Positions 12,884 to 60,799 of a DNA stretch of 64,000 bases are shown here, piece by piece (within the stretch, counting starts at the first letter, position 1; every line of letters starts with the position of its first letter). Below the pieces are notes generated by a model. The model was not told the origin of the DNA and did not search any database. It worked only from the letters and a program-made list of their open reading frames with translations. The stretch is from contig NC_058368.1 of the NCBI RefSeq assembly GCF_018350175.1, positions 10,788,001 to 10,852,000 of the forward strand, read 5' to 3'. Source of the stretch: Felis catus. Taxonomy: Eukaryota. The translations under genes were made by a program, and so were the position numbers.

Positions 12884-15455
12884 AATGGATGCAAAAATCC
12901 TCAGTCAGATACTAGCCAACCAGATTCAACGATACATTAAAAGAATTATTCACCACGCCAAAGTGGGATTTATACCTGGGATGCAGGGCTGGTTCAATAT
13001 CCACAAATCAATCAGTGTGATACATCACATCAATAAAAGAAAGGACAAGAACCACTTGATCCTCTCAATACATGCAGAGAAAGCATTTGACAAAATACAG
13101 CATCCTTTCTTGATAAAACCCTCAAGAAAGTAGGGATAGAAGGATCATACCTCAAGATCATAAAAGCCCTATATGAAAGACCCAATGCTAATATCATCAT
13201 TCAAGAAAGTAGGGATAGAAGGATCATACCTCAAGATCATAAAAGCCATATATGAAAGACCCAATGCTGATATCATCCTCAATGGGGAAAAACTGAGAGC
13301 TTTTACCCTAAGGTCAGGAAGAAGACAGGAATGTCCACTCTCACCACTGTTACTCAACATAGTACTGGAAGTCCTAGCCTCAGCAATCAGACATTCAAAG
13401 AAATACAAGGCATCCAAAATGGCAAGAAGGAAGTCAAACATTCACTCTTCGCAGAAGACATGATACTCTATATGGAAAACCTTAAAGATTCCACCAAAAA
13501 ACTGCTAGAACTGATCCATGGATTCGGCAAAGTCACAGGATATAAAATCAATGCACAGAAATCAGTTGCATTTCTATATACCAATAATGAAGCAATAGAA
13601 AGAGAAATCAAGGAATTGAACCCATTTACAATTGCATCAAAACCCATAAAATACCTAAAAATAAACCTAATAAAGAGGGGGAAAACATCTATATACTGAA
13701 AACTATAGAAAGCTTATGAAAGAAATTGAAGAAGACACACAAAAAAGGAAAAATATTCCATGCTCATGGATTGGAAGAACAAATATTGTTAAAATGTTGA
13801 TACTACCCAAAGCAATGTACATAGTCAATGCAATCACTATCAAAAAAAACACCGTCATTCTTCATAGAGCTGGAACAAACAATCCTAAAATTTGTATGGC
13901 ACCAGAAAAAAACCCGAATAGCCAAAGCAATCCTGAAAAAGAACATCAAAGCTGGAGTCATCACAATCCCGGACTTCAAGATGTATTACAAAGCTATAAT
14001 CATCAAGACAGTTTGGTACTGGCACAAAAACAGACACTTAGATCAATGGAACCCAATAAAGAACCCAGAAATGGACCCACAAATGTACGGCAAACTAATC
14101 TTTGACAAAGCAGGAAAGAATATCCAATGGAATAAAGACAGTCTCTTGAGCAAATGGTGTTGGGAAAACTGGACAGCGACATGCAGAAGAATGAACCTGG
14201 ACTTCTTTCTTACACCATACACAAAAATAAACTCAAAATGGATGTAAGACCTAAACATAAGACAGGAAGCCATCAAAATCCTAAAGGAGAGAATCAGGTG
14301 AAACCCTCTTTGACCTTGGCCACAGCAACTTCTTACTCAACACATCTCTTGAGGCAAGCAAAAATGAATTCCTGGAACCTCATCAAGATAAAAAGCTTTT
14401 GCACAGTGAATGAAACAATCAGCAAAACTGAAAGGCAAGCGACAGAACAGGAGAATATATTTGCAAATGACCTATCAGATAAAGGGTTAGTATCTAAACT
14501 TTATAAAGAACTTATACCCAAACTCAACACCCAAAAAACAAATAATCCAGTGAATAAATGGGCAAAAGACATGAATAGACACTTCTCCAAAGAAGACATC
14601 CAGATGGTTAAAAGACACATGAAAACATGCTCACCATCACTCATCATCAGGGAAATACAAATTAAAACCACAATGATATACCACCTCACACCAGTCAGAA
14701 TGGCTAAAATGAACAACTCAGGAAACAACAGATGTTGGTGAGGATGCAGAGAAAGAGGCTCTCTTTTACACTGCTGGTGGGAATGCAAACTGGTGCAGCC
14801 ACTCTGGAAAACAGTATGGAGGTTCCTCAAAAAGTTAAAAATAGAACTACCCTACAACCCAACAATTGCACTATTAGGTATTTATCCAAGGGATACAGGT
14901 GTGCTGTTTCGAAAGAGCACATGCACCCCAATATTTATAGCAGCTCTATCAACAACAGCCAAAGTATAGAAAGAGCCCAAATGTCCACCGACAGATGAAT
15001 GGATAAAGAAGATGTAGTATATACAATGGAGTATTACTTAGCAATCAAAAAGAATGAAATCTTGTCATTTGCCACAACGTGGATGAACTAGAGGGTATTA
15101 TGCTAAGCAAAATTAGTCAGAGAAAGACAAATATACTACTTCACTCGTATGTGGAATTTAAGACACAAAACATATGAACATAAGGGAAGGGAAGCAAAAA
15201 TAAGATAAAAATAGAGTGTGGTACAAAACATAAGAGACTCTTAAATACAGAGAACAAACTAAGGGTTGCTGGAGAGGTTGTGGGTGGGAGGATGAGCTAA
15301 ATGGGTAAGGGGTACTTAGGAAGACACTTGTTGGGATGAGTGCTGGGTGTTATACACGGGGGATGAATCACTGGAATCTACTCCTGAAATCATTATTGCA
15401 CTATATGCTAACTTGGATGTAAATTTTAAAAAATAATTAACTAATTTTTAAAAAA
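12884..15455 (+). mobile_element. 5'-truncated carnivore L1 (RT to 3' UTR), inactive
   Basis: ORF2 fragments [50 protein letters not shown] and the C-terminal CCHC region; frameshifts and stops; A-rich tail; tgacagaaa at 12866 and 15456 as probable TSD. Confidence 0.97.
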
Positions 15456-20320: not shown

Positions 20321-22310
20321 TGGCTATTTGGAGTCCTTTGTGGTTCCATATGAATTTTGGAATTGATGTTTCAATTTCTATAAAACAAAATGTCATTGGG
20401 ATTTTAATGAGGATCATGATAAATCTAGATTGTTTTGGGTAGTATGGACATTTTAACAATATTGTCTTTCAATCCATGAACATGGGGATATCTTCCCATT
20501 TGTTTGTATTTTCTTTAATTTCCTTCATCAGTGTTTTATACTTTTCAGTGTATAAACCTTTACCTCCTTAGTTAAGTATATTCCTAAGTATTTTATTCTT
20601 TTTGATGCCACTGTAAATGAGAGTGTTTTCCTAATTTCCTTTTCAGGCAGGTTGTTGTTAGCATACAGAAACATAACTAATTTCTGTAGGTTGATTTTTT
20701 ATCCTGCAATTTTACTGAGTTTGTTTACTTTAAGTTGTTTTGTGGAGTCTTTAGAGTTTTTTACATATGAGATTATGTCATCTGTAAACAGGGACAAGTT
20801 TTCTCACCTAATTGCTCTGGCTAGGATTTCTAGTTCTGTGTTAAATAAAAGTGTGTGGCATCATTCCTTCATTCATGATATTAGAGGAAAAGCTTTCATA
20901 TGGAACAACCAAACAGTCTTGAGAAAAAGAAAAAAAGCTGGAAGCATCGCACCTCCTGATTTCAAACTATGTTACAAGGCTACAGCAATACAAACAGTAT
21001 GGCATAAAGACAGACAGACCAGTGGAACAGAATACAAAGCCAGAAATAAATCTACATGTATCCGGTCAACTGATCTTCAACAAGGGTGCCAAGACTTCAC
21101 AATGAGGAAAGGATAGTTACTTCAACAAATTGTACTGGGAAAACTGGATACCCACATGCAGAAGAATAAAACCAGACCCTTATCTTATATCATATACAAA
21201 AACCAACTGAGGGGCGCCTGGGTGGCGCAGTTGGTTAAGCGTCCGACTTCAGCCAGGTCACGATCTCGCGGTCCGTGAGTTCGAGCCCCGCGTCAGGCTC
21301 TGGGCTGATGGCTCGGAGCCTGGAGCCTGTTTCCGATTCTGTGTCTCCCTCTCTCTCTGCCCCTCCCCCTGTCCATGCTCTGTCTCTCTCTGTCCCAAAA
21401 ATAAATGAAAACGTTGAAAAAAAAATTAAAAAAAAAAACTAACTGAAAATGGAGTAAATACTTAAACATAAGACCTGAACCCATAAAACTCCTAGAAGAA
21501 AACTAGGGTAAAAGCTTCAGTCTTGGCAATGATTTCATGGATATGACACCAAAAGCACAGGTAACAAAAATACAAATAGACAAGTGGGACTACAGCAAAT
21601 GAAACAATAGCATGAAAAGGCAATCTATATTCCATAGAAAGGAAGAAAACATTTGCCAACTATGTATCTGATGAAGGATTAATCTCTACACTATATCATG
21701 AACTCCTATAACCCAATAGCAAAATAACCAATGACCCAATTAAAAAAAGGGCTAAGGACTTGACTGACACTTGTCCAAAGATCTATAAATGGCCAAAAAA
21801 GTATTCTGGCCAAGTATTCTTGGCCAAAAGTAAATGGCCAAGATGTGGAAACAACTTAAATGTCCATCAATGGATGAATCGATTAAAAAATGTGACATAC
21901 ACACACATATACACACACACATAAGGGCTGAATGAAATATTATTCAGCCCTTAAAAGGAAGGAAATCCTTCAATATGTGACAACATGAATGAAATTTGAG
22001 GTCATTATGCTAAGTGAAATAAGATACTCACAGAAGGAACATGGCATGATTCCACCTATATGATGTATCTAATATAGTCAAACTCATAGGAACAGAGAGT
22101 AAAATGGTGAATGCTAAGGGCTGGGGAAAGGCAGGGAGGGGGATTGCTAATCAATGTGTATAAAACGTTAGTTATGTAAGATGAATAAATTCCAGGGAAC
22201 TTCCATATAACACTGTGCCTACATTTAATGGCATCATAAACTTAAAAATCTGTTAAGGTGGTAGATCTCATGTTAAATATTCTTAACACAACTATAATAA
22301 TTAAAAAGAG
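20321..22310 (+). mobile_element. Old L1 (L1MB1/2-like) with 5' inversion (20321-~20898 antisense, remainder sense)
   Basis: Antisense ORF2 ('tggttccatatgaatttt'...'ttagaggaaaagctttca') joined to sense ORF2 ('AGSIAPPDFKLCYKA'); L1MB-type 3' UTR 'gtagatctcatgttaa'. Confidence 0.9.
21211..21433 (+). mobile_element. Young felid CAN-SINE inside L1
   Basis: Near-identical to the SINE at 279; TSD aaaaac(c/t)aactga at 21198-21210 and 21434-21446. Confidence 0.97.
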
Positions 22311-50050: not shown

Positions 50051-50255
50051 TGTGTCAGACCGTGTATTCTCTGCTTTAGGCAATCTATCTCATCTGATCC
50101 TCACAGCATGAAGAAATAGAGACCCAAAGAAGTTAAGCAACTGGCCACCATCCCCCAGCTATTAAGTATCTGAGGGGAATGTGGTCTTAGACCACCTGAC
50201 TCCAAAGACAACGTCCCTAACCATTAGATACACAAGTGTTTTAAAATGACCACAG

Positions 50256-50500
50256 ATGAACATATGGAAAGTGGGGGGAGAGAAGAGGGGGAAGCAAACC
50301 ATGAGGGTCTTGATGATAGACAACAAACTGAGGGTTGATTGAGGGAGATGGGTGGGAGACAAGCTTGATGGGTGATGGGCATTAAGGAGGGCATTTGTCA
50401 TGATGAGCCCTGGGTGTTATATATAAGGGATGAATCACTGAATTCTACTCCTGAAACCAATATTTCACTGTATATTAACTAAAATTTAAATTAAAAGAAA
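50256..50500 (+). mobile_element. Carnivore L1 3' UTR fragment
   Basis: 'aacaaactgagggttga', 'gatgaatcactgaattctactcctgaaacc'; TSD taaaat(ga/ac)ccacag. Confidence 0.9.
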
Positions 50501-50994
50501 TAAAATACCCACAGGACTGGCAATGTGCAGACTGATTTAGAGGCCACCAAGAATGACTGCTGATTGGAAGGTTCTCTTACGAGTGACTTACATGAAATAT
50601 GGAATGAGAAACAGACTTTTTAATTAGTGAAACTTGGACCCTGGCTACTCAACTGAAACCTTTCAAATGTAATTTGTCTTGTGTCAAAATACTCTCTGAT
50701 TTATATTGACATATGTATAGCAGGACTTTACATTTCAGAGCCAACAGCTTCAAGAGCCCTTAAAGGCATGGCAGGCATAACTTCCTTGTGGTTTTGGGGT
50801 TGTTGTGTGAGGCTGAGGGGCATGTTTTATGCTGATAGGCCTCTACAACATGGGACTTCCCATTATAAAGGTTTCCCTTTAGAGTTTAGTTAATTGTGCT
50901 TTAGATTTCAAAGTAGGGCTGAGGGGGTTTCACTGAAGACTTTTTTTCCAATATAAACAGCACAACTTCCCAGACTTCTTGGCGTGGTTCAGCT

Positions 50995-51410
50995 GTAATT
51001 GTTGTTGTTTTGACTAGGCATATAAATATACCATTTAAGGGAAACTAGATCAAAACATCCAGCAGATCACTTGGGAGACCATAACAGACAGAGGTTTGTC
51101 TCTGCTCAAGGTAAGGACAGACACTCCCAGAGTACAATCAGATGGTTATGCCCAGAGGTTGCTCATGTGGGGTCTTTACAGGATGGCAGGGAGGCTAAGT
51201 CTTTGGCTTGACTTATCTGTGTAGCTCAAGTCCCTTACATTGCTTTTGGAGCATTATTGCAGAGCACAGCGCCTGAGGAGAGGAGGACCCTAGGATCATT
51301 CTGTCTGTTCTCCTTCTGTAGATGTGCAAACGCAAAGGGCAAGGGGTAAAGTCATTTCCATTGTTATGGAAGCTCTTTTTGCCCTTTCCCATATTAAATC
51401 TATCCAACTC
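50995..51410 (-). mobile_element. Probable old solo LTR, family unassigned
   Basis: TG...CA ends and antisense LTR-like organisation ('accataacagacagaggttt'); weak. Confidence 0.35.
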
Positions 51411-51618
51411 AAATCATGTATAATTTCATACAAAATAAGCAGAAATCTAGGATTAAAACTGAAATAAAGTATCCAGTGGCTAATAACCAGCAACAATTTA
51501 ATTCTTTGTATCCATCTGAATTAGCCATCATCTCTCATCATTGCCAGAAGATAATAAAGCAAGCCTCTCTCTCAGACACTTGAATAAGAACATATAAGGA
51601 AAAGATGAGTAGTGAAAG

Positions 51619-52113
51619 TGAAAGGTTCTATTCAAAGCCCCCTCCTCAGCCAAGCTTACAGATAAAAACTCACAGGTACCTGTGCTTGGCCCTAATTCTT
51701 TGTTTTTCTAGGTCATGGTGTCCCTCATTCTCAGACAATAGTCCACAACTACAAAACATATTCTTCTCTAGCCTGACCACAACCCTCATCCTGGACAAGT
51801 CCTGGACAGAGCCCCTTAGAAACCTGTCACCTCCTGCTCTACCTGGCCAAGAGTCAGCCCCCTCCCCATGCCCACCATTGGCACAGCTACAACACTTTCA
51901 TATCCTTACCAAACCAGACCAATCCAAACCAATCAAACAAACAAACAAAAAAACCCAAAAACGTAAAAGGCACAGCCCAAAAGAAGCTCAGGGCCAACAT
52001 CTCTCTTGATGTCTGACCCCTCTTCTCCCTCGGACACTGAATAAACTCTGTCTTGCTTGTTGCTCTACTCTTTGTGCAATTCTATGCCCTCTGTATCACT
52101 GGCCACCCAAGCA
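51619..52113 (+). mobile_element. ERV 5' LTR (~495 bp)
   Basis: TGAAAGG...CA; aligns to 60064-60799; CCAAT at 51919 and 51929; AATAAA at 52040. Confidence 0.93.
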
Positions 52114-52117
52114 TTTT

Positions 52118-52135
52118 TGGTGGCCTGTATGGGGA
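52118..52135 (+). other. Primer-binding site complementary to tRNA-Ile(AAU)
   Basis: TGGTGGCCTGTATGGGGA vs expected TGGTGGCCCGTACGGGGA; both mismatches are CpG>TpG; begins 5 nt after the LTR end. Confidence 0.85.
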
Positions 52136-52545
52136 CTGGCCATTGCCCATTGACTTGACTCCATCTCAACCAGATCTCCTTGTCAACTAATCTCAAGTCA
52201 AATTTTCATTTTTGGGAGGGCTTTTTGAGATCTTGAGCACTGGATACAATCACCAGGTTGGCTGATTCCCCACCCCAAGGTTCAAGCCATAGTAGGGGGC
52301 TCAGTCAATAATCAACATATTCACCATAGAGGGATGCCTCTTCTAGGTCTTTCCAAAGTTTGGGATGCTCAATTCCTTCCCTCATACTGACCCTTAAGAC
52401 TGGGGGATGCCCCTTTCTCTCAGGCTCGGCAATGGTCAAGGTTTCATATTCTTTTCAGGACTCTGGGTCAAGATGTCTCCCTTCATGGTTTTTCCCTTTG
52501 TTCCCAGTCCTCAAAATCTCCCTTCTCCTTTTCCTAGATTTCCAG

Positions 52546-54120
52546 ATGGACAATACCTTGTCCACTCCTCCCAAGGACTGCCCTCTGGGATGCCTCTTTA
52601 AAAATCTCAAAAACTTCCAACTGGAACAAGATATTCAGCCCAAAGATCTTATTTTCTACTGGAATACAGCCTGGCCCCAATATAAATTAGATGGTCAGGA
52701 GGTCTGGCCAGAAACTCAAAACAGTGAGTTTGTATTGTCATCACCTGGGTAAATGGTCCAGGGTTCCTTATGTGAAAGCTTTTTTTGAACTTACTCATCA
52801 TCCTGACCTTTGTGCTGTTTGCCATATTCTCCTTCTATCTCACCAAAAGACCCCTCTCCCTCTCTCCAATTCTCACAACTCAGACTTCAACACTCCCAAC
52901 CAATCTCCATGTCTGCCTTTCCACTCACCCATAGTCAATCCTCTCTTGGCACCTCTATGCTCCTCTGCAGACTCACTGGCACACCTTTCCCCCTTCAACA
53001 CTTGCCTCCGTGTCCCAATGCTTCTCCAGCCCACACTCATTCTGGCCACTCTTATCAACTTGCTGATGGTCCCACCACCTCTTCAGGAGGTGTCTGGAAC
53101 AGACAGCATTAATCAGGTCCATGTTCCCTTCTCCATGCCAGATATTTCTCCTATAGAATCTAAGCTTGGCTCTTTCTCAACAGATCTCTCCAGATTCACT
53201 AAAGAATTTGAATATCTCACCCTTTCCTGTGATTTATCATGGAAGGACCTGTATGTTATTCTCTCCACCTATACCACCCCAAAGGGCAAAAACCGAATTT
53301 GGTCCAAGGCTACTGAACATGCTGATGATTTGAGCCACAGAAAGCCTGCACAATATGCTCCTGGCATTGCAGTGGTTCCCTTAGTTGAGCCCAACTGAAA
53401 TTACCAACCCTCCTCTGGAGACAAGGTCAAACATGACCACATGGTCACCTGCCTTATAGAAGGCATGAAACAGGCAGCTTCTAAACAGATCAATTATGAA
53501 AGGTTAAGGGAAATCACTCAGAGATCAGATCAAAACCCTGCCCTTTTCCTTACTCAGGCTTCTTCAAAAATTCACCACCTTGATCCTAACTCTCACAAAA
53601 TAAAATTGATCCTGGCTATACATTTCATCTCCCAGTAAGCCCCAGATATTAGAAAGAAACTTCAAAAAGTAGATAAAGGCCCTCAAACCCCTCAATCCGA
53701 ACTACTGACCTGGCCTTCAAGGCCTTTAGTAACAGAGAGGAGGCAATCAAAGAGGAAAGGAGACAAAGAAATAAAAAAAAACAATCTCAGGCTTATCAGC
53801 TCCTGGCTAATGGGAGCTATTGTGGAGAAGTCTTAACCTGCTGGCATGACCCAAACATTCCACAAGCCCCTTCCTGGAGCTTGTTACACCTGTGGTAAGC
53901 CTGGCCACTGGTCTAAACAATGTCCCAATAAAAAACTGCCACCCAAAACCCCTTGCCCCACCTATAAGCAAGGTTGTCCACTGAAAAAGTAACTACCCCA
54001 TCCTCAAAGTAGGTGGGGGAGACCCCGCCTCCAAAAACCTGTCTTTGGGGGCCCAAATAGGGGATATAAGCCATAACTCTGGTGGTAGATCTCTTGGGAC
54101 TTCTTTAGGACATGGGCTGA
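52546..54120 (+). pseudogene. gag: ERV gag (disrupted)
   Basis: PLGCLFKNLK..LIFYWNTAWPQYKLD..WPE; GKWSRVPYVKAFF; VHVPFS; MHR-like ITQRSDQNPALF; zinc knuckle CYTCGKPGHWSKQC at 53882-53923; frameshifts and stops. Confidence 0.93.
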
Positions 54121-54159
54121 CACATCTCAGGATCAGCAAAGGCTCCTGAACATGTCTTC

Positions 54160-54440
54160 CTCACAGCTGAGCCCAGAGTGACTCTCTTCGTTGAAGGTAA
54201 GAACATATCATTTCTTACAGACATGGGAGCAACTCCCCACTGCTCTCCCCAGATTTTTAGCGACACTCTTCTTCCTCCCCCATCTCTGTCATTGGGTCAA
54301 TGGCTTTCTTTCTCATCCTTCAGCTACCTCATTCTTGTCTTGTGCTCTGGGAGATAAATTCTTTAGCCATTCCTTTTTTGTTCTGCCATGCTGTCCTGTC
54401 CCCCTTCTAGGACAAGACATCATGATGAAAATAGCGACTC
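54160..54440 (+). pseudogene. pro: ERV protease (disrupted)
   Basis: EPRVTLFVEGKNISFLTDMGAT (DTG active site, ACG>ATG) and CPVPLLGQD. Confidence 0.88.
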
Positions 54441-55644
54441 ACCTTCAATGGCACCCCATACACCCACAATCCCAATTCTTGGGACTCCTTACTAAATACC
54501 CTGCTCTCACTTTACTCTCTCCAGTTATGACTTTGGTTCCCTCATCTCTATAGGGAACCTCTAAACCAGTTAAGGCTACTCACCTTACCTCCATCACCAT
54601 AACCTCAAGGATCCTACTTTTTTTCCTCTCAAAACCCCAATATCCTCTCAAATCTGAGGACTTGTAAGGCTTACAACCCTCATTTCCAAATTTATTTCCT
54701 CAAATATATTAAAACCTACTAACTCTCCTTACAGTACTTCAATCCTTACAGTCAAAAAGCCAGATGATTCTTACAGAATAAATGGTTCAGGATCTCAGAA
54801 TTATCAATGAGGCAGTTGATTGCATCCACCCCGTCATCCCCAATCCATATACCCTTCTCTCCACCATTACATCTTCCATTATGTACTTCACTGTCTTAGA
54901 TCTTAGAGATGCAGTTTTCAGTATTCCCATCTCCCCAGAATCCCTGGAACTTTCTGCCTTAACCTGGACTGACCCTGACACCTGACACTCCAAATAGTTA
55001 CCATGGTGGACAATTCTCCCCCAGGGTTTTAGGGATAGCCCCCACTTCTTTGGACAAACTCTGGCATCAGATTTCTCTAACCTCTCCCTCCCAAAGAGTA
55101 CTCTTATCCAATATGTGGATGACCTTCTTCTCTGCAACTCTTCTTTGACCACTTCTATTTCTGACAACATCACTCCCCTTACTTTCCTGAACAAAGGTTA
55201 AAGTTTCCTTCTCCAAAGCCCAACTTAATCAACTATCTGACACATACCTAGGATTTTTGCTTATAACAGGACACAAGGCCATTATCTCCCAATGAAAACA
55301 ACTCACTTCTAATTCATAGCCCCCATCATTCAAACAAAAACAAAAACAAAAACAAAAAAAAAAAACAAAACCCAACTTCGTGCCTTCTTAGGTCTCACAG
55401 TATGCTTTAGGATTTGGATTCCCAGCTATGGTCTTATAGCCAAACCTCTCTCTATAGTTTGGTCCTGAACATGAACTTCCAGAATCACATTCCTTTTCCT
55501 CACAGCCTTTCACACTTCAAAACAGGTCTTCCTTTAAGCCCCAGCCCTGGCCTTTATTAATCTTCAAAAGAATTTTCTCCTGTACACAACAGAGAGGGGA
55601 GGAATAGCTCTAGGACTATTGGGACAGAAATATGAACCAGACTT

Positions 55645-55841
55645 GGGACACCTGGGTGGCTCAGTTGGTTTAACATTCAACTTCAGCTCAGGTCACCATC
55701 TCAAAGTTCGTGAGTTTGAGCCCCATGTTCGACTCTCTGCTGTCAGTGCAGGGCCTGCTTTGGATCCTCTGCCTCCCTCTCTCTCTGCCTCTCCCCCACT
55801 CACACTCTCACTCTCTCTCAAAAGTAAATAAACATTAAAAA
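55645..55841 (+). mobile_element. CAN-SINE in ERV pol (first of tandem pair)
   Basis: SINE head, CT tract, A tail. Confidence 0.94.
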
Positions 55842-55856
55842 TATATATATGGGCCA

Positions 55857-55983
55857 GGGTGGCCTGGGTGGCTCAGTCAGTTAAGCATCCTACTTTTGGT
55901 TTAGGCTCAGGTCATGATCTTGTGGCTTCATGGGTTCAAGCCCCACATCAGGCTCTGTGCTGACAGTATGGAGCTTGCTTGGG

Positions 55984-56035
<52 letters not shown>

Positions 56036-56095
56036 CCTTTACCCCTCCCCCACTTGCACTGTATCTCTCTCAAAATAAATGAATAAACTTAAAAA
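55857..56095 (+). mobile_element. CAN-SINE in ERV pol (second of tandem pair) with expanded (CT)n
   Basis: SINE head, long CT tract at ~55987-56033, A tail. Confidence 0.94.
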
Positions 56096-58141
56096 TTATA
56101 TGGACAAGACTTGAAAGCAGTAGCTTTTTTCTCAAAACAATTAGACAACACAGCCAATGGATGGTCTCCATGCCTCTGAGACTTAGAAGCCATGGCCCTA
56201 TTAACTCAGGAGGTTAACAAACTCACATATGGACAACACACAGACATCTTTTCCCCTCACCAGGTTGTAGACATCCTAAACAACAATGCCTATCACTTTC
56301 TCACAAGTTGCTGAATCACACAATACCAAACACTTCTGGGGGACTCTGACGTCACCATTCAAAAATCTACTACCTTAAATCCTGCCACTTTCCTCCCCAC
56401 AACACAGCCAGGAGAACATTCATGCCCAGAGATATTAGAATACTCCCAAGCAATCCAAACAGATCTGGCAGACCTTCCCCCTTCAGACCCAGAATATTTA
56501 TGGTTTATAGATGGAAGTTTAATATCAAATAGAAAAATAAAGGCAAGATATGCAATTACCACAACCACACAAGTCATAGACAGTTCACCCCCTACTACTA
56601 GGGACATTGGCACAAAAAGGAGAGCTCATCACTCTCACCAGAGCTCGTACCTTAGGCAAAGATAAAAGCCTCAAAATTTACACTGACTCAAAGTACACTT
56701 TCCCCATCCTGCAATTACCCCCAGATACTCAGACAACGAAAGCACAACATCCATAAAAAGGGGGCCAGCATGAAAGGACCCTGGATAATATTTCAGGGAA
56801 GACTCATGCTTCCTATAGAACAAAAGGAGGTAATCCTCAATAACATTCATAACTCTTTACATATAGGACCAAGGCCCCTTTACACACTCTTAAGATGTCT
56901 CCTCTGGTGCAAAGACTTACAAACCAGGCTTACCAATATCACCAGGAATTGCCCCATATGACAGTCAGTAGACCTAAAAGGACGCCTTAGACCACTGCCC
57001 TCCATCCTGATCCACCAATTTCGTTGACACTTACTCAGACAAGATTGGCAGCTAGGCTTCACTTACATGCCCAAGCACAAGGAATACAAATACCTACTAA
57101 AACTCACTCTTTCTCAAGCTGGCTTGAAGCCTTCCCCACCATTACAGAAAAATCCTCAGAAGTAACTTGGGTCCTTCTTTAGGAGATCATTCCCATTTTG
57201 GGTTCCCCACCTCCTTACAAAGTGATAGGTATCTTAGTCCCTAGGAATTGTTTACAAACTCCACTCAGCTTATCACTCTCAACACTCTGGAAAAACTAGA
57301 CAAAGTTCATTCAACTCTTAAACAACAACTCACTAAGTTATCCATAGAGCTTAAAATGGGCTGGCCACTCCTCCTTCCTTATGCACTTCTAAAGATATGA
57401 GCTACTCCTAAAGTGCCCCTCTTTCTGAGCCCTTTCAAGCTCATGTATGGCATGAGCTACACCCTGCTACACCCCGACTTAAAAACAGAGCCCCCTCCCT
57501 TGGAAGACTATCTCCCCACAGTAGAAATCACTTGAAAAATACTCAGGGAATATGCAGATCAACACCTCCCAAATCCCTCACCAACCTTCAAACCAAGCAA
57601 ACATTAGAACCAAGCAACTGGTCCTTTTAAAGGAACTCCCAGGTCAAATAAAACCACTTCAACCACAATGGAAGATAACCCTTTCAAATAATCTTTCAAA
57701 TAATGGGTTATCCCCATTGCAGTCAAACTCCTCAGATTCCTTCCTGGATTTACCTCTCAAGACTCAAGCTAACAACCCCACCACCAAAAGAAGACTGCCC
57801 ACCTGCTGAGCCCCTACAATACACCTCTCAGCCTACCAGTGACCTCAAACTGCTCTTCAAAAAGGTAAAAGCCCCTCCATGCCCACACAGACAAGAAACC
57901 TCTTTGACTCCATCCTAGTTGACCTCCAACATTATCCACCTGATCCCTGTAAGGACTTCACCTCTGGAAAGGTATAATCCTTTATTCATACTCTGGCCTG
58001 GAACAAGCTCCTACAGGGAGATTTCATGGAATATTCCTTTAATGAAATCTGTCAATACCTTCGATAAGTCCTAATAACCCCGATTCACCTTCTGCTCTGG
58101 GAAGTCCTCATTCTTGGGATATTGATTATGATCCTTGATCC

Positions 58142-59935
58142 ATGAATGAGAAATTGTCTACTCCCACCAGGATGGAATCACTTTCTCTGCAGATCACTTT
58201 TTCTGGGGCTCCCCCCATACTCTCTATGGCTACTATGAGGGTCCCAAACACTCCGGGGGCACTCACCCTCAACTCCACTCTCCACTCTTCTCAAGCACTT
58301 CACCATCCTTATTTCCAGTCCACCAAGGCAGCCATCTAAACTCTTAACAACAAAAATACAACAGACAAAAACCGTTTGATATGTGCCCCCACCTCCTCAA
58401 CCAAGGGACTGATTCCCATCACCAGCAACTTAACTGACTGGTACCTGCTCAATACTACCTTCCACGTCCAACACATTTCAAAGGATGAACACCTTGACTT
58501 CCATATTAATGCCCAAATTATCACTCAATTCGATAAATTCCTTCTTATATCCAGACCAATTCTATCAGGGATAAAGCCAACACAAACATCACCTATCTGT
58601 GTTAATGCTTCACAGTCTGACCTACAGATGGTCTTCCAAAATGTCTTTAATGATTCCCTAATCTTTCCACTAACCCCTCCACACGACAAGCAAGGACTCC
58701 CTCAAACAGATAGGTGGGGCACTGATTTTTACCTTCACAAACCCAACAACATAACCATACCCACAAGACCCAACACCAAAGCTACCTGGACACTCTCTTC
58801 CACTAGTGATACAACAGACTGCCCAGGCCTGAATAATTCTTGCCCCTACAACAACTCCAACTTCTTCTTCCAACCCAAAAATACACAAAACTGTCAATCC
58901 TATAAAATCCCTGATGGCAATGACTAGAGATGGGACCACACCTAGGGGCATATTAATTTTCCTACCAAATCATATTCAACATCCATAAAGCTGGTCTACA
59001 TCACTCCACTGACAGTGACCATGGTAGGGGAGATTTATCCCATATATGCCCCCCAAAATAAAAGAGTTGGACAACTCACCATATAGCCCTGCATGGAGCC
59101 TGAACCTCGCACCTGTTTTCTCTGCAGCACCTGGGCCTTTCTCTGGAAGGGATACTGCACCCCCATATAGCTAATTCCTGGCCTACACTTTCCCAACTCA
59201 CCAGTCCTCAGACCCTGGCACAGACTGTAACAGACACTCAAGTGAAAACCCAGTTCCTTCTATCCTGTCCTTGAAGAGCTGAGCTGGTGTCTATCCTCTT
59301 CCTCCTTGCGATCTTTACGGGAGCTGAGATGGGCACAGGAGGAATAGCTCATTCTATCCATACATGGGAACTCTCTCTTTCCTTGACTCAGCAAGTAAGC
59401 CACTTGGCTTCCACACTCCAAGCTGTGCAGAGACAGACTGATTCATTCCCTGGCAGGAGTGGTTCTTCAAAAATCCTCAGGCTTTAGACCTATTGACTGC
59501 TAATCAGGGGCTGGTGGGGAGGACGGGGAGGGGCCTTACCACAGGAAGAATGTTGCTTCTATGTAAATGAGTCAGGTCAGGTTTTAGCCTTGATAAAATT
59601 ATCAACTCAGCTAAAGACAATCAAGAACAATATAAAAACTTGGGGGCTGACTGGTTCTCCTAGAAACTAGATATCTGGTTTGGCTCACTCCTTTCCTGGG
59701 AACTTTCTTAGTTATTGGAATAGTCCCTATTTTGGGGCCATGTATTTTAAAATATCTAATCTCCTTCATCCAGGACTGAATATCAACCCTTGGTAGCTCT
59801 CTAAGGTCTCAACAAGCTCACACTTAAGCCCTTGCTTTCAGAACAATCCACCACTAGTATCTCCCTCACTCTTGTCTCTCAGTCAGCTGGGTAAGGAGGG
59901 CTCTTCGCCCCACCTCAGCAGGAAGCAGTTACATA
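58142..59935 (+). pseudogene. env: ERV env (disrupted)
   Basis: SU frame 58142-58927 with one internal stop; degenerate CxxC (NRLIC); FLCSTW..WKGYCT; fusion peptide; ISD LAGVVLQ-N.QALDLLTANQG at ~59450-59512 (frameshifted); EECCFYVNESG; TM WLTPFLG..LGPCIL. Confidence 0.92.
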
Positions 59936-60039
59936 AGAATGACCTTCTCCCATATTCCCCAATCAACGATAATTTCAAATAAAGAGAGGAGAGAGAAACC
60001 AATATTGTGCTGTAGGCTAACTACTGAAATCTAAATTTT

Positions 60040-60063
60040 AAAAAAGAGAGAAAGAGGAGGGAA
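60040..60063 (+). other. Polypurine tract
   Basis: aaaaagagagaaagaggagggaa directly before the 3' LTR. Confidence 0.88.
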
Positions 60064-60799
60064 TGAAAGGGTTGTATTCAAAGCCCCCTCACCAGCCAAG
60101 CTTACAGACAAAACTCACAGGTGTCTGTGCTTGGCCCTAACTCTTTGATTTTCTAAGTCATGGTGTCCCTCATTCTCAGAAAATAGTCCACAACTCAAAA
60201 CATACTCTTCTCTAGCCTGACCACAACCCACATCCCAAATGAGCCCTGGACAGAGCCCCTCAAGAAACCTGCCACCTTCTGTTCTATTTGGCCAAGAGTC
60301 AGCCCCTCCCCACACCTCCAATGAGAAGTACAGCTACAGCCCTCTCACATCCTCACTAAAAACAAAAAAACAAAAACAACAACAACAAAAAAAAAACCCA
60401 GAACAAAACAAGCCTTAAAAGGGCCAGCCCAACAGAAGCTCAGGGCCAAAATCTTTTTTTTTTTTTAATTTTTTTATAATGTTTGTTTAGTTTTGAGAGA
60501 GAGATAGAAAGAGAGAGAGCATGAGTAGAAGAGGGGCACAGAGAAAGGGGGACACAGAATCCAAAGCAGGCTCCAGGCTCTGAGCTGTCAGCACAGAGCC
60601 AGACGTGGGGCTCGAACTCACAAACCGTGAGATCACAACCTGAGCTGAAATACGACACCTAATCAAATGAGCCACCTCCACGCCCCCCAAAATCTCTCTT
60701 AATGTCTGGCCCCTCTCCTTTGGACAGTGAATAAACTCTGTCCTGCTTGTTGCTCTACTCTCCAATTCTTTGCTGCCTGTGTCACTGGCCACCCTAACC
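60064..60799 (+). mobile_element. ERV 3' LTR (interrupted by a SINE)
   Basis: Homologous to the 5' LTR; AATAAA at 60730. Confidence 0.93.
60455..60686 (-). mobile_element. CAN-SINE inserted in the 3' LTR
   Basis: TSD ccaaaatct at 60446-60454 and 60687-60695; empty site present in the 5' LTR. Confidence 0.96.

Follow-up and report, generated by a model that had tools for sequence, protein, structure and literature searches.

The 64,000-nucleotide stretch of Felis catus contig NC_058368.1 analyzed here (positions 10,788,001 to 10,852,000; hereafter the window) contains, at 51619-60799, a class I provirus in which long terminal repeat (LTR), primer-binding site (PBS), gag, pro, pol, env, polypurine tract (PPT) and a second LTR follow one another in complete order. 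With a probability that we place at roughly 0.8, this locus goes back to a single entry into the germ line by a class I retrovirus that carried env and belonged to the HERV-H/F (HERVHF) supergroup, in a host ancestor that was probably feliform. Trees of two Pol regions, reverse transcriptase (RT) and connection-RNase H, both placed the provirus among H/F elements, in agreement with a preliminary description, made from the letters alone, that had proposed an old carnivore member of this lineage rather than a virus of the FeLV/RD114/MLV type. The element carries a PBS of tRNA-Ile type, which that description had missed and which is new here.

Identification of the provirus

A pair of direct repeats lying about 8.45 kb apart in the window was identified as the two LTRs (51619-52113 and 60064-60799), with 86% identity over 480 aligned sites when a short interspersed element (SINE) within the 3' LTR was excluded. 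Retroviral Pfam families were matched in gene order, namely Gag_p30 (E 1e-13), zf-CCHC (2e-8), RVP (0.019), RVT_1 (4e-11), RT_RNaseH (4e-5), RNase_H (0.001), Integrase_H2C2 (2e-4) and TLV_coat (2e-5), and the LTR pair together with this order bore out the layout and coordinates proposed beforehand. Several of the matches fall under Pfam's curated cut-offs, and a retroviral family was recovered in 3 of 18 translated pieces in a first scan and in 7 of 15 in a second; the retroviral matches lie far beyond chance expectation. A Protein Data Bank (PDB) search with the RT core retrieved the RTs of MMLV (E 5e-29) and HIV (approximately 1e-6).

Phylogenetic placement

Searches with the RT core contributed the best 120 of 196 matches (836 candidates) and the best 150 of 1757 representatives. 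Among 263 RT matches, the 224 spanning the core were used for a quick tree, while a careful tree comprised 73 chosen rows plus the query (74 rows), with nearly all rows near the query kept and the outgroups sampled. Approximately unbiased (AU) tests were performed on 37 rows plus the query (38 rows) under the LG+G4 model; the groups corresponded to the hypotheses of the preliminary description, and their member rows were chosen after inspection of the 74-row tree. For connection-RNase H, 43 of 47 candidates were long enough, resulting in 44 rows with the query and no HERV-H row. The gamma-like rows consisted of one wombat and two unnamed sequences, named FeLV and RD114 sequences and the cat ERV-Fc sequence itself were not among the rows, and several primate-like HERV-F clades in the RT tree carried no names.

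The provirus fell within the H/F set on RT (support 97/84 with 74 rows and 100/98 with 38 rows), which was the outcome expected by those who had proposed an RT tree as a check, and likewise on connection-RNase H (100/97, 44 rows). On RT, the HERV-H rows grouped at 100/100 without the provirus, which is thus not nested among them, and its union with HERV-H stayed acceptable in the AU test (p = 0.165). It lay outside ERV-Fc and the sister rows of ERV-Fc in the RT trees (99/96 and 98/97) and outside Fc on connection-RNase H (100/99). AU tests on RT rejected its union with the ERV-Fc core (p = 0.006), with carnivore ERV-Fc (1e-4), with HERV-W/9 (0.011) and with the gamma-like rows (0.013). The RT and connection-RNase H trees agree on H/F, which makes membership of the HERVHF supergroup solid, but they give different positions within it.

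The nearest set on RT was rich in rodents, a weakly supported grouping (93/77 and 91/80), and the highest RT identity (62% over 198 columns) was found with rodent H/F-like elements (Peromyscus, Spermophilus, Dipodomys, and the 'murERV-Fc' RT row of PMC4798954). RT made a rodent sister group, which would suggest transfer between rodents and carnivores, look attractive, but the second region did not bear it out: connection-RNase H put the provirus outside rodent plus Fc (99/94), so that we do not advance the link, and the rodent grouping was not rejected on that region (AU p = 0.248). An RNase H of HERV-I type, hinted at by blastx ranks, was ruled out by the connection-RNase H tree. Scans of viral contigs for named anchors returned one pattern match each and no relative.

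Two observations were made on the compared sequences themselves. The mouse 'murERV-Fc' RT of PMC4798954 matches by eye a row (P0130) that falls outside the ERV-Fc clade, among rodent elements, while the mouse capsid (CA) row in the alignment of that paper looks like a true ERV-Fc, so the two mouse rows may differ in lineage. In addition, an unnamed Logan protein of 991 aa (P0010), probably from a rodent, has an H/F-like RT and tether fused in-frame to a W-like env C-terminus, which suggests a deleted or env-swapped element.

Primer-binding site and structural markers

The PBS (52118-52135, plus strand) consists of the 18 bases after a 4-base spacer and matches the tRNA-Ile PBS in Table 2 of PMC1084362 at 16 of 18 positions, both mismatches being of the CpG-decay kind. 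A hand count against the Phe PBS of ERV-Fc, which every one of the 21 rows in the ERV-Fc table of PMC4798954 carries, yielded 10 of 18. The usual, though not absolute, HERVHF trait of a His, Phe or Lys PBS is thus replaced here by tRNA-Ile. PBS use is described as unstable across class I groups in passages of PMC4724089 and PMC1224870; among 532 canonical HERVH chains, the former reports His in 386, Phe in 57 and Lys in 19. Three rows in the supplements of PMC4724089 share the first 9 letters of the PBS and are HERVW or HERVIP, none being HERVHF, a weak result in that the look-up used two 9-mers only, on truncated table cells.

Two nucleocapsid (NC) zinc knuckles and a low G content are given as H/F markers in PMC1224870 and PMC4724089, whereas gammaretroviruses proper (FeLV, RD114, MLV) have a single knuckle. 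Both were found in the provirus: of the two knuckles (53882-54000, plus strand; zf-CCHC and translation), the first is intact (53882-53923) and the second decayed but recognisable, and base composition (G 15.6%, C 28.6%) follows the low-G/high-C pattern of HERVHF, with a GC skew of -0.24 to -0.40 across 52-59 kb. All peptides quoted in the preliminary description, including the decayed second knuckle, were recovered from the raw three-frame translation. The RT motif that it had read as an H/F sign is present; it is not diagnostic, since nearly the same motif occurs in HERV-W and ERV-Fc rows. Similarly, the likeness of the surface subunit (SU) to HERV-H/F was seen again, as a scattered resemblance of the SU N-terminus to HERV-H Env, by eye only and without a statistic.

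In the alignment of PMC4798954, it was the HERV-H row rather than the cat ERV-Fc row that CA resembled more closely by eye. Beyond the near-copies of the element, the best matches of CA among the proteins compared were unnamed Gag proteins (42-44%), followed by a horse protein and the HERV-Fc1 cluster (38-39%). A Gag search returned 8 of 2026 candidates, too few for a Gag tree. The transmembrane subunit (TM) mixed Fc-like and H/W-like features by eye in an alignment comparison. A protein-atlas look-up of SU gave no usable match, and PDB searches with env pieces gave matches at chance level, the best env-related one being Syncytin-2 (E 1.9).

Weighing of the explanations

Several observations weigh against a single integration of an H/F virus. 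The group labels of the trees were assigned by eye against the supplementary RT alignment of PMC4798954. The query sat on a long branch (0.59-0.94) in every tree, which limits resolution inside the supergroup. In raw blastx, bird-like and ERV-Fc proteins tied on the tether-RNase H stretch, though the tree placed it in H/F. A tRNA-Ile PBS is atypical for the supergroup, none of 94 candidates was scored in the Env homologue search, leaving env unplaced, and the 13 nt next to each end yielded no target-site duplication (TSD), whether as a perfect 4-mer or as a 5- or 6-mer allowing one mismatch.

The PBS and env results bear on the possibility that the virus was itself a recombinant, with H/F gag-pol joined to the leader and PBS, and perhaps the env, of another class I lineage (the PBS being HERV-I/IP-like). 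The Ile PBS and its shared letters with HERVW or HERVIP rows point in this direction, as do the mixed features of TM and the env swaps documented for carnivore ERV-Fc. PBS switching without recombination is nevertheless common, as the HERVH counts illustrate, the SU N-terminus resembles HERV-H Env, and both pol trees give H/F. We consider a recombinant origin improbable, although it is the least improbable of these alternatives, and it is compatible with the proposed account as far as gag-pol is concerned. The absence of a TSD would also be expected of a post-integration chimera, whose ends came from two family copies by ectopic recombination and whose LTR distance would then be a divergence between copies that overstates the age of the locus; the LTR distance (13-15%) is indeed close to that between paralogues (16-17%). 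However, gene order is unbroken, internal decay is heavy, so that the provirus would be old even if chimeric, and both borders bear signs of local indels able to erase a TSD, namely a tandem repeat of 6 bp on the left and the loss of the terminal CA on the right. A chimera is accordingly judged unlikely, slightly more so than a recombinant virus.

Far smaller chances attach to two other explanations. One is that the provirus is a divergent copy of the cat ERV-Fc already published (fcaERV-Fc, LTR5_FC): the two share the supergroup, the probable host and the richness in C, and the top blastx scores of the integrase stretch were with ERV-Fc proteins. The AU test nonetheless rejects both the Fc core and carnivore Fc (from rows that did not include the cat sequence itself), the PBS is not of Phe type, and RT, CA and TM are unlike the cat rows by eye, which makes this origin very improbable. 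Co-option by the host of one portion of the locus, be it an LTR or a gag or env frame, could be suspected from near-identical translations (95% and 99%) of a 235-codon gag frame in other sequencing runs. That frame, however, does not open in register with the true start of gag and is closed by a stop, conservation of this kind is expected of neutral orthologues in close species, and the main env frame holds 7 stops; we give co-option hardly any credence.

Under the favored reading of one H/F integration, the source virus would have been an enveloped simple retrovirus with LTR-driven genomic RNA, a gamma-type Env and a two-knuckle NC. Gag-Pro-Pol would have been made by read-through of the gag stop codon, and reverse transcription would have been primed by tRNA-Ile; the primer apart, this scheme follows H/F biology as set out for proviral structure in PMC4798954. 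The single integration may have been followed by little amplification, then by methylation and neutral decay.

Comparison with known elements

The provirus resembles HERV-H/F elements in Pol placement, two NC knuckles, low-G bias, in-frame gag-pro and gamma-type env, and HERV-H in particular in CA and the SU N-terminus by eye; it differs from them in its carnivore host, Ile PBS and very low copy number, and from HERV-H in not being nested in its rows. With ERV-Fc (cat fcaERV-Fc/LTR5_FC and dog CfERV-Fc; PMC4798954, PMC6407205, and, for the dog, PMC3093408) it shares the supergroup, a simple and C-rich genome, presence in carnivores and an overlapping age range, whereas it lies outside the Fc clade, its PBS is not of Phe type and the 5-bp TSD given as an ERV-Fc feature in PMC4798954 was not seen.

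Among cat elements, the review PMC4133949 lists 42 class I families (FcERV gamma1-42, from Song et al. 2013), with 24 of the in-silico ones having one or two members, and PMC4373062 describes old felid lineages I-XI with LTR distances similar to that of the provirus. As described in these papers, both sets comprise old class I cat proviruses, among them families of one or two members and LTR distances of 0.13-0.28, and the provirus may be one of them, the comparison being by description and not by sequence. It is quite likely that the family already has a name in Dfam or Repbase; Repbase contains CarERV families according to PMC4373062, no CarERV sequence being displayed in the papers searched. 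No description of an Ile-primed H/F element in cats was found in the literature searched, which excludes most subscription journals.

More tentatively, and with the odds against it, the provirus could represent an undescribed deep H/F branch that belongs neither to ERV-Fc nor to the rodent H/F-like clade, Ile-primed, with HERV-H-like CA and SU, in early feliforms 30-50 My ago. If so, it would bear witness, from outside the primates, to the pool of viruses that later gave rise to HERV-H, and a deep HERV-H-adjacent placement, if it holds, would help to root the H/F radiation. More broadly, the provirus shows that ERV-Fc was not the sole H/F lineage in carnivores and that primer choice within HERVHF reaches tRNA-Ile, and its presence or absence provides a marker for carnivore phylogeny that can be dated. 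Its value is mainly that of a fossil with no sign of coding function, it bears on no open mechanistic question, and it is an ordinary find save for the unexpected tRNA primer site.

Age and copy number

The Kimura two-parameter distance between the LTRs was 0.150 over 480 sites and 0.129 over 390 sites after removal of a low-complexity middle. With three substitution rates discussed in PMC6407205, this corresponds to 14-17 My (4.5e-9), 29-34 My (2.2e-9) or 49-56 My (1.33e-9), so integration probably took place about 15-55 My ago depending on the rate, with 30-50 My preferred. Relative to the unique flank, the depth of the best LTR bin at 80% likeness was 17-26 times higher in three contig sets and approximately 23 times higher in raw reads (n = 119); that of internal bins was 1-3.6 times the flank value in the contig sets. 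These values suggest a small family of about 20 LTRs and 2-3 internal copies at 80% identity or more, a rough floor because depth in contigs does not equal the number of copies and those of greater divergence go uncounted. One other internal copy differed at 57 of 335 and 92 of 574 bases (83-84% identical), a divergence similar to the LTR-LTR distance. The stretch joining flank and LTR was present in 20 of 24 listed runs (11 studies, one organism) with 99-100% of its words, which suits a fixed locus; 14 of the runs were flagged as possible sources of the DNA, and the list ranks holders first.

Structure and decay of the provirus

All features lie on the plus strand except where stated. The 5' LTR (51619-52113, 495 bp, TG...CA) has an AATAAA at 52040, and loose ends of other copies in sequencing runs occur near its borders, at 51624 and 52108. 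The 3' LTR (60064-60799; AATAAA at 60730) lacks its terminal CA and is interrupted by a SINE on the minus strand (60448-60688, with a short flanking duplication). The span proposed for the element stands, with the small corrections that the 5' LTR ends at 52113, that the terminal CA is gone on the right and that no TSD was seen. Just upstream of the 5' LTR, its initial six bases occur a second time in tandem (51613-51624), in a purine-rich, PPT-like flank. The reading of this flank as the PPT of a tandem copy lying upstream found no support, 50500-51618 having no match to the provirus and single-copy depth.

gag (matrix-p12-CA-NC; 52546-54120) is interrupted by several stops and frame changes, and its terminal stop codon shares the frame of pro. 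The protease (54121-54450) is frame-broken with a decayed catalytic motif, and its RVP match is weak. RT and connection (54638-55645) are spread over several frames with stops, with YVDD at 55112 and an A-rich run at approximately 55330-55365. Two tandem tRNA-derived SINEs (55646-56100) split pol, whose homology picks up again at 56102 with the tether and the N-terminal half of RNase H (56102-56780), after which about 250 bp have been deleted (95-113 aa of three homologues are passed over within 32-80 bp). The integrase (56780-57900) is broken and shows by eye a decayed GPY/F-like C-terminal stretch. env (58139-59860, borders approximate) is of gamma type with many stops and frame changes, a decayed CXXC region in SU, and a fusion peptide, immunosuppressive domain, CX6CC and anchor in TM. 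The PPT lies at 60041-60063, just 3' of a short fragment (59990-60045; 79% over 29 nt to 50453-50481) that is presumably an L1 3' end.

Every gene is broken, as had been claimed: stops and frame changes occur throughout, six single-frame pieces hold 2, 2, 3, 2, 3 and 7 stops (the last in the main env frame; some counted stops sit in locally shifted stretches), and the longest stop-free plus-strand frame is the 235-codon one in gag. Three SINEs lie inside the provirus, and its CpG observed/expected ratio is 0.09. From these features it is probably inert as a virus now, and nothing indicates co-option, expression not having been examined. Those database translations that match at 99% and 95% seem to come from orthologues in relatives. 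One at 58% identity (P0003) looks like another copy; it follows 52847-53344 through p12 to CA in the same frame, which looks off-register and is possibly a family-wide defect.

The SINEs appear to be of the cat-type SINEC family, which speaks for a felid host; none of the three within the provirus has the diagnostic motifs listed in PMC4084570, which therefore gave no help with the host. No Rfam family matched in the window, and no host gene was recognised among its 13 stop-free frames of at least 130 codons, spliced exons not having been sought. Ten SINE-like copies in the window match the first pol SINE. Broken remnants at 13271-14741 (plus strand) and 20556-21116 presumably belong to L1 ORF2, as judged from their translations, and a further L1 3' end lies at approximately 50230-50500.

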